Of a stretch of DNA of 64,000 nt, positions 28,197-28,978 are shown piece by piece. The notes below the pieces were generated by a model. The model was given only the letters and a program-made list of their open reading frames with translations, was not told the DNA's origin and made no database searches. The translations under genes and the position numbers were made by a program. The number at the start of each line of letters is the position of its first letter. Position 1 is the first letter of the stretch. The stretch comes from Octopus vulgaris (Eukaryota), in NCBI GenBank assembly GCA_951406725.2, contig OX597824.1, positions 70,060,001 to 70,124,000 on the forward strand. Reading direction: 5' to 3'.

Positions 28197-28897
28197 AGCG
28201 ACAGAGACAGTATTAATAACGAGAGGTAACAGCTATCTCCACTTAAACGTGTATGTTTTTATAGAACAAACTTTACTGCGGTAGTTACCACGGGAGAAAC
28301 TTTTATATTGGCTTTTTGGTACAAAATGCACTTTGTTTATATATTGCTTATATAAACATGATGTGGAGGCGCAATGGCCCAGTGGTTAGGGCAGCGGACT
28401 CGCGGTCGTAGGATCGCGGTTTCGATTCCCAGACCGGGCGTTGTGAGTGTTTATTGAGCGAAAACACCTAGAGCTCCACGAGGCTCCGGCAGGGGATGGT
28501 GGTGATCCCTGCTGTACTCTTTCACCACAACTTTCTCTCACTCTTACTTCCTGTTTCTGTTGTACCTGTATTTCAAAGGGCCGGCCTTGTCACTCTCTGT
28601 GTCACGCTGAATATCCCCGAGAACTACGTTAAGGGTACACGTGTCTGTGGAGTGCTCAGCCACTTATACGTTAATTTCACGAGCAGGCTGTTCCGCTGAT
28701 CGGATCAACCGGAACCCTCATCGTCGTAACCGACGGAGTGCTTCCACATATAAACATGAGAGTATTTTGCACCCAAAAGTCAGTGTGAAGATTTCTTTCG
28801 TGGTAACTACCGCAATGAAGTTTATCCTAAAAGAAAATCCACGTCTAAGTGGGGATGAATATTACTTCTTAGTCATTGATAGGAAGGACCTGTCGCT
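28197..28897. repeat. Long imperfect palindrome (~150-bp arms) split by a SINE insertion
   Basis: Left arm 28197-28343 is the reverse complement of 28349-28361 plus 28760-28897 (e.g. TGCGGTAGTTACCACG / CGTGGTAACTACCGCA). Centre TGTTTATATA-TTGCT-TATATAAACA. Confidence 0.85.
28362..28747 (+). mobile_element. SINE family C (tRNA-derived head) with 12-bp TSD
   Basis: GGCGCAATGGCCCAGTGGTTAGG ... GGTTTCGATTCCC; tail CGTCGTAACCGACGGAGTGC; TSD ATATAAACATGA at 28350-28361 and 28748-28759. Confidence 0.9.
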
Positions 28898-28930
28898 CGT
28901 ATCAATTCGCAGCTTCTGCCTTTCTGGTAT

Positions 28931-28978
28931 CTGTTGCTGAAGAGGAGATAACCATTCCGAAGTGCATGCATCCAACAG
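28931..28978 (+). ncRNA. Type I hammerhead ribozyme, A15.1->G variant
   Basis: CTGTTG-CTGAAGA-GGAG(ATAACCA)TTCC-GAA-GTGCATGCAT-C-CAACAG. Stem I 6 bp, stem II 4 bp with one G.U, near-palindromic stem III, AUC site. Only deviation is GAAG instead of GAAA. Confidence 0.7.

Follow-up and report, generated by a model that had tools for sequence, protein, structure and literature searches.

A hammerhead ribozyme motif beside a SINE-split palindrome in Octopus vulgaris, a probable remnant of a Penelope-type terminal repeat

A locus in the genome of Octopus vulgaris (GenBank assembly GCA_951406725.2, contig OX597824.1) was found to carry a type I hammerhead ribozyme motif next to a long palindrome that is split by a SINE. 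The locus is probably a decayed, non-coding remnant of a Penelope-type terminal repeat, either a pLTR end-piece or a non-autonomous derivative, and the hairpin an inversion made at this locus. It was studied in a stretch of 64,000 nucleotides (positions 70,060,001 to 70,124,000 of the forward strand, here called the window), which is animal DNA rich in microsatellites. From 5' to 3' the locus consists of an old DNA-transposon-like repeat that ends at 28008, a tail copy, an extension, an inverted arm, a direct arm with the SINE in it, a linker, the hammerhead, the tail and a (TACA)n tract (Table 1). The GC content of its parts is 0.34–0.48.

Table 1 Features of the locus, with positions in the window.
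Feature	Position	Strand	Remark
AT-rich old repeat end (flank)	27770-28008	.	adjoins the upstream tail copy
Upstream tail copy (direct repeat 1), 5' part missing	28009-28143	+	about 71% identity to 29031-29150
Tail 3' end and extension without counterpart in the downstream copy	28126-28191	+	family sequence at 28126-28167
Left arm	28192-28340	-	inverted copy of 28750-28902; without hammerhead
Palindrome centre	28334-28358	.	AT-rich stem of 9-10 bp with a short loop near 28346; from sequence and fold
SINE target duplication, left copy	28350-28361	+	12 of 12 identical to 28748-28759
High-copy SINE, tRNA-like head (box motifs by eye)	28362-28747	+	inserted later than the hairpin
Right arm	28748-28902	+	first 12 nt are the second SINE target duplication
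Linker 5' of the hammerhead	28903-28930	+	common to P0121, P0122 and P0124
Type I hammerhead motif	28931-28978	+	predicted cut after 28972; G replaces A at 15.1 (28962)
Post-hammerhead tail (direct repeat 2 at 29025-29147)	28979-29147	+	ends at the (TACA)n tract

The flanking repeat end, whose terminal motif we take to be of hAT type, has two further copies in the window (31022-31277 and 6082-6286, about 76–78% alike), and the upstream tail copy was probably truncated by it at 28008. On the other side, an element of 565 bp, whose 35-bp terminal inverted repeats are 91% alike, lies within the (TACA)n tract at 29210-29774 and presumably represents something like a deleted Tc1/mariner. Elsewhere in the window, the minus strand at 51580-52275 encodes a C-terminal fragment of a LINE reverse transcriptase (230 codons), the best relative of which is 81% identical.

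Alignment of the two arms (28192-28340 and 28750-28902) gave 149 columns, comprising 111 Watson-Crick pairs, 16 G.U pairs, 10 A.C pairs and 12 other mismatches, which corresponds to a divergence of 25.5%. The co-fold of the arms reached -140 kcal/mol against -64 ± 5 kcal/mol for 60 shuffles, about 15 standard deviations below them on the plus strand and 14 on the minus strand. The hairpin with arms of about 150 bp, split by a SINE, that had been proposed from inspection of the sequence (hereafter the original prediction) is thus borne out by the 111 paired columns of 149 and by the 12-bp target duplication of the SINE. Two further statements about the mismatches fared less well. Transitions are indeed the majority (26 of 38, a share of 0.68), though this is no enrichment relative to the window's other repeat pairs, four of which together give 93 of 155 (p = 0.36). 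The bias towards G.U-compatible mismatches near the centre, where the inner 46 bp hold 8 G.U, 2 A.C and 2 transversions, is not significant: over the whole arm 16 G.U stand against 10 A.C (p = 0.16), the comparison of inner with outer arm gave p = 0.22, and some 46-nt stretch was equally biased in 23% of 20,000 random labellings. As strand bias is absent, RNA editing was dropped as the origin of the arm mismatches.

Other origins of the arm sequence were considered. The right arm has an open frame of 63 codons, which by eye we take to resemble the C-terminus of a GIY-YIG domain; searches for coding relatives gave no support to it as coding sequence, and the periodicity of the mismatches (14/7/6) points to a frame with stops. 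Neither could the arms be established as diverged copies of the tail (p 0.27–0.32), the lowest value being that of the left arm against the upstream tail with its extension (p = 0.028, uncorrected). A perfect 9-nt inverted repeat (28129-28137 and 28224-28232) belongs to a stretch in which the outer 45 nt of the left arm weakly resemble the tail end read in reverse complement, and the segment 28182-28196 recurs at 28243-28257 with 14 of 15 positions identical. A second copy of the hairpin or an inverted tail was not found elsewhere in the 64-kb window. Around the hairpin, or around the unit as a whole, there is no target duplication beyond chance, and the best repeat flanking the hairpin is 6 bp long.

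The high copy number of the SINE is apparent from sequencing run X15, in which 145 contigs break off at 28362 and 15 at 28746 and in which the summed contig depth over the SINE is about 1e6. Related pieces occur in the window at 31555-31740 and 44464-44541.

The core boxes of the hammerhead are in type I order, with a helix I of 6 bp, a helix II of 4 bp including one G.U pair, and a palindromic helix III. The descriptor used for the search matched twice in the window, both times on the plus strand, no hammerhead being found with it on the minus strand, and it matched none of 40 block-shuffled windows. Rfam models gave no match in the window at the gathering score and eight matches by E-value in 27800-29300, with no hammerhead among them. 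The motif and its single core change, from A to G at position 15.1, are as originally described. This change breaks the invariant A15.1-U16.1 pair at 28962. In the other copies of the family described below, position 15.1 can be read from the peptides in four hammerheads (two each in P0121 and P0122): the two direct copies have Met where the window has Val, the two inverted ones have Phe where the window has Leu, and all four imply A. Changes at the 15.1-16.1 pair are reported, in the text available of PMC3088659, to cost at least 10-fold. As A15.1 is kept in all four readable hammerheads and G stands here, this copy is likely dead, and on the basis of its sequence it is likely to be inactivated, weak or silent, so that the earlier claim of inactivation was probably right. 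For the contigs of runs X15 and X18 no difference from the window is listed at 28962, the contigs being short and differences near their ends being seemingly unlisted; either some other copies also have G15.1, perhaps, or these contigs may be this very locus.

A second type I hammerhead is present on the plus strand at 46811-46858. Its core is fully canonical with A15.1 kept, about 120 nt follow it, and (TA)n lies on both sides, which gives it the look of a further Penelope-type end that has been truncated. It has no second copy in the window and resembles 28931-28978 only in the core.

The tail is present twice at the locus, as a direct repeat of about 120 bp (28014-28143 and 29031-29150) with an alignment score of 87, the best of 500 shuffles being 31, and a divergence of 27%. 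The period of this repeat is 1017 nt, or 619 nt without the SINE and 306 nt without the whole hairpin. Since the repeat brackets both hairpin and hammerhead, the unit of about 385 nt that had been proposed is too short, the SINE-free period being 619 nt. The upstream tail copy has at least 24 nt more family sequence than the downstream one, residues 67-80 of P0122 matching 28126-28167 with 7 changes in 42 nt (the best of 1000 shuffled peptides had 9). A contig of run X18 matches from 28014 to about 28058, and its letters upstream of this resemble 29000-29030. Folding of the hammerhead together with its tail was no better than that of shuffles (z 0.23).

Copies outside the window were sought with one read-through frame as the query against 1.84 billion proteins, which gave four matches. 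One of these (P0123), with an E-value of 0.59 on the region, was rejected as a chance match of low complexity, and a further profile search recovered only the same three proteins (P0121, P0122 and P0124) among 687 candidates. They are peptides from chance reading frames of public Logan contigs (1.0–1.5 kb), and the sample is a biased one, at peptide level only, as direct copies need to have lost the in-frame core stop in order to be called. In P0121 an inverted tail and hammerhead (residues 29-43, minus strand, 7 changes in 45 nt) are joined almost directly to a direct copy that starts from 28896. In P0122 an inverted tail, hammerhead and linker reach to about 28901 and are followed by a piece like 28126-28167, by about 33 unmatched nt and by a direct copy from 28881; arithmetic on these match positions implies a period of about 330–340 nt. 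P0124 starts about 10 codons upstream, is damaged in the hammerhead and says little on the upstream sequence. Thus, hammerhead and tail are arranged head to head in two of the three other copies. At window position 28947 in helix II (P0121 residue 40, P0122 residue 49) the inverted hammerheads imply A, and the direct ones, like the window, have G. This pattern, at one position only, may reflect joint inheritance of the two halves, inverted and direct, from a single palindromic ancestor.

All three copies link the tail to the hammerhead region, with 3, 3 and 6 changes in 36 nt for the best pieces of hammerhead and tail in P0121, P0122 and P0124. For the arm interiors, compared as 12-residue pieces at every third start, no fewer than 9 changes per 36 nt were required by any piece of the three peptides. 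The sequence directly 5' of the hammerhead differs from the window in two of the three. The outer end of the right arm (28881-28902) is family sequence that runs on into the hammerhead, as residues 92-98 of P0122 match it with 3 changes in 21 nt; the 10 residues before them differ at 17 of 30 nt. The original prediction took hairpin and hammerhead to be one conserved unit, a view that does not hold for these copies, the hairpin interior being matched in none of the three.

Sequencing runs gave further information on the family. In run X15, whose contigs are of uncertain RNA origin, the depth was 24–96 over the left arm (from about 28195), 8–9 over the right arm, 47–55 over the hammerhead and 54–96 over the tail. 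These depths show that arm-like sequence is present in the run, and they are equally compatible with linkage of arm and hammerhead, which they do not establish. Two joints in the same run tie the hammerhead to the tail in copies of differing spacing. Another of its contigs (depth 41.6) tracks the window to one base beyond the predicted cut site (28973), diverges, and rejoins the tail at 29069. The raw-read run X21 yielded 1 matching read in 12.9 million and is uninformative on copy number, empty sites and variant shares.

Assignment of the locus to a Penelope-type end is supported, at the level of sequence, by the head-to-head copies, the absence of the arm interiors from the three other copies, the roughly equal divergences of arms and direct repeats, the lack of a G.U bias and the unremarkable fold of hammerhead and tail. 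Hammerhead and tail are shared by all three other copies and the tail is repeated at the locus, as in a terminal repeat; the inverted copies of P0121 and P0122 include the hammerhead, and the locus itself has an inverted arm without one. In the parts available of PMC3846280, PMC8557442, PMC4209133 and PMC11167929, the pLTR ends of endonuclease-bearing Penelope-like elements resemble the locus in several respects: they have a type I hammerhead close to the 3' end whose helix III is palindromic, direct and inverted repeats with a palindromic head-to-head junction, two tail copies with different end points, an AT-rich site by a microsatellite and, as in two of the three other copies, head-to-head hammerhead pairs. 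Insertions of such elements are described as 5'-truncated, often with an adjacent inverted copy and with a 30–40-bp extension at one end (PMC8557442, as far as available). Inverted pLTRs are sometimes shorter than direct ones, palindromic head-to-head junctions have been read as self-priming, and solo pLTRs are able to capture unrelated DNA (accessible text of PMC3846280). Pairs of hammerheads on opposite strands lie 100–700 bp apart, and type I hammerheads with a palindromic helix III act as dimers (accessible text of PMC4209133). The helices of the locus (6 and 4 bp) are of canonical type I size, unlike those of the minimal motifs with a long helix II covered in these sources. Unlike the Penelope-like elements described there, the locus has no coding region and no target duplication, and its inverted arm ends short of the hammerhead.

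The weak points of the Penelope-type reading are the missing parent frame, the inverted arm without hammerhead and tail, the missing target duplication and the depth of the arms in X15. No relevant Pfam match was obtained in 12 frames, and in a further search, too, coding sequence for a reverse transcriptase or a GIY-YIG domain was not found at the locus. In the accessible part of the supplement of PMC8557442, none of four locus-specific motifs was present, apart from one 11-letter chance match, and in that of PMC13282606 none of five.

A different account would place the locus among non-LTR retrozymes. The part of the original prediction that stands is a genuine hammerhead in a mobile repeat family of the retrozyme or Penelope kind, with three other copies; the hairpin as part of the conserved unit, its interior being matched in none of them, is not supported. 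As far as described in the accessible text of PMC7229834 and bioRxiv 10.64898/2026.07.22.740005, animal non-LTR retrozymes share with the locus a canonical type I hammerhead, the lack of coding sequence, a GC content that the locus matches with 34–48%, partial direct repetition and, as implied by P0122, a monomer of about 330–340 nt. They differ from it in that the locus has no tandem array, has a single hammerhead and belongs to a family with head-to-head copies, that hammerhead and tail are not unusually self-paired, and that a 150-bp stem was not found in the retrozyme descriptions available in these sources. The locus does not consist of hammerhead-bearing units in head-to-tail tandem: one hammerhead was found there, and another repeat lies 5' of the first tail copy. 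Derivation of non-LTR retrozymes from Penelope pLTRs has been proposed in print (available parts of the same two sources), and the latter source relates vertebrate retrozymes to pLTRs. A monomer, which would be non-coding, would measure 619 nt at the locus against the 330–340 nt implied by P0122, and the two lengths lead to different accounts. With the shorter one, the locus would be a partial tandem of a retrozyme composed of linker, hammerhead, tail and extension, and some other palindromic element, unrelated and about 290 nt long, would have been inserted at the junction, so that hairpin and hammerhead adjoin by accident. This possibility, which we hold to be rather unlikely, accounts for the layout of P0122, in which the extension and some 33 unmatched nt lead to sequence from 28881 on with no hairpin present, for the 306-nt period of the window once the hairpin is subtracted and for the arm sequence in X15 contigs, and published animal monomers are about 300 nt long with a GC content below 45% (accessible text of PMC7229834). 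Against it, the inverted repeat takes in some 22 nt that belong to the family (28881-28902), as an independent terminal-repeat element would not, the hairpin has no flanking target duplication above chance, and P0121 and P0122 are head-to-head rather than head-to-tail arrays.

With the longer monomer, which amounts to the original prediction at a corrected length, a retrozyme subfamily of about 620 nt would itself carry the 150-bp stem, and the locus would be a more-than-unit insertion with about 135 nt of terminal redundancy. The direct repeats that bracket hairpin and hammerhead with the 619-nt SINE-free period, the equal divergence of arms and repeats, which fits one event, the similar X15 depths of arms, hammerhead and tail, and a vertebrate retrozyme consensus of up to 972 bp (bioRxiv 10.64898/2026.07.22.740005, available part) speak for it; nevertheless we consider it improbable, as the hairpin interior is matched in none of the three other copies, no strand-specific pairing signal was detected, and there are a single hammerhead at the locus and no second copy of the hairpin in the window. 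The idea of a viroid-like unit, finally, found no support, and it is very improbable indeed that the locus is a rod RNA, viroid-like or derived from a virus, that became endogenised. The rod-like fold beside a hammerhead would suit such an RNA, and run X18, labelled as an insect metatranscriptome, contains pieces of the stretch. The matches in X18 and X17 are, however, mainly to the SINE (13 of 30 and 6 of 30 bins), and X18 holds many diverged SINE copies together with pieces of the hammerhead family, which are most simply explained as carried-over host nucleic acid or by a wrong label. Pattern scans gave 0 and 11 loci in viral contigs (two scans), 5 in metagenomes and 0 in prokaryote genomes; in all 16 loci the match was confined to the seed, and they were rejected as relatives. 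A search of viral contigs with P0122 gave no relative either, and a viroid-like origin further sits poorly with a repeat that is genomic, with one hammerhead of one polarity only, as viroid-like circles usually have ribozymes in both, and with two perfect-repeat-like arms, which fit a DNA inversion.

For the Penelope-type remnant that we favour, the following history may be envisaged. A Penelope-type enzyme provided in trans would have reverse-transcribed RNA of the element, synthesis would have halted about 190 nt 5' of the hammerhead (the SINE left out), and fold-back or template switching would then have written the short inverted copy. The product would have entered AT-rich DNA, either next to an older copy of the tail or inside it; the Penelope-type enzyme is described as nicking AT-rich DNA, its own pLTR included (accessible text of PMC11167929). 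Neutral decay would have brought arms and direct repeats each to about 25–27% divergence and changed A15.1, and the SINE and the DNA-transposon end would have arrived later. From its palindromic helix III, the hammerhead of the family would be expected to cut as a dimer.

Penelope-like elements make up 6.83% of one Octopus genome (PMC13282606, available part), where their expansion corresponds to a Jukes-Cantor distance of about 0.2, and with such a share two hammerheads in 64 kb are unremarkable. No description of this hammerhead-repeat family or of octopus hammerheads was found in the literature covered, with most subscription papers and the repeat libraries lying outside the search. Most likely, the locus functions like a Penelope-type terminal repeat and represents a new family of a known type. 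On this reading, an octopus contributes a further family to the Penelope-type repeats with hammerheads, and the locus is a caution that Penelope-type integration in animals readily yields palindromes of rod-like shape next to hammerheads. The locus would matter more only if the hairpin travels with the ribozyme: should the improbable hammerhead-delimited subfamily of about 620 nt, with a captured near-perfect stem of 150 bp, exist after all, half of its circular RNA would form a double-stranded rod. An animal would then harbour a selfish RNA shaped like a viroid, which in a cephalopod host would be a natural substrate for heavy A-to-I editing.
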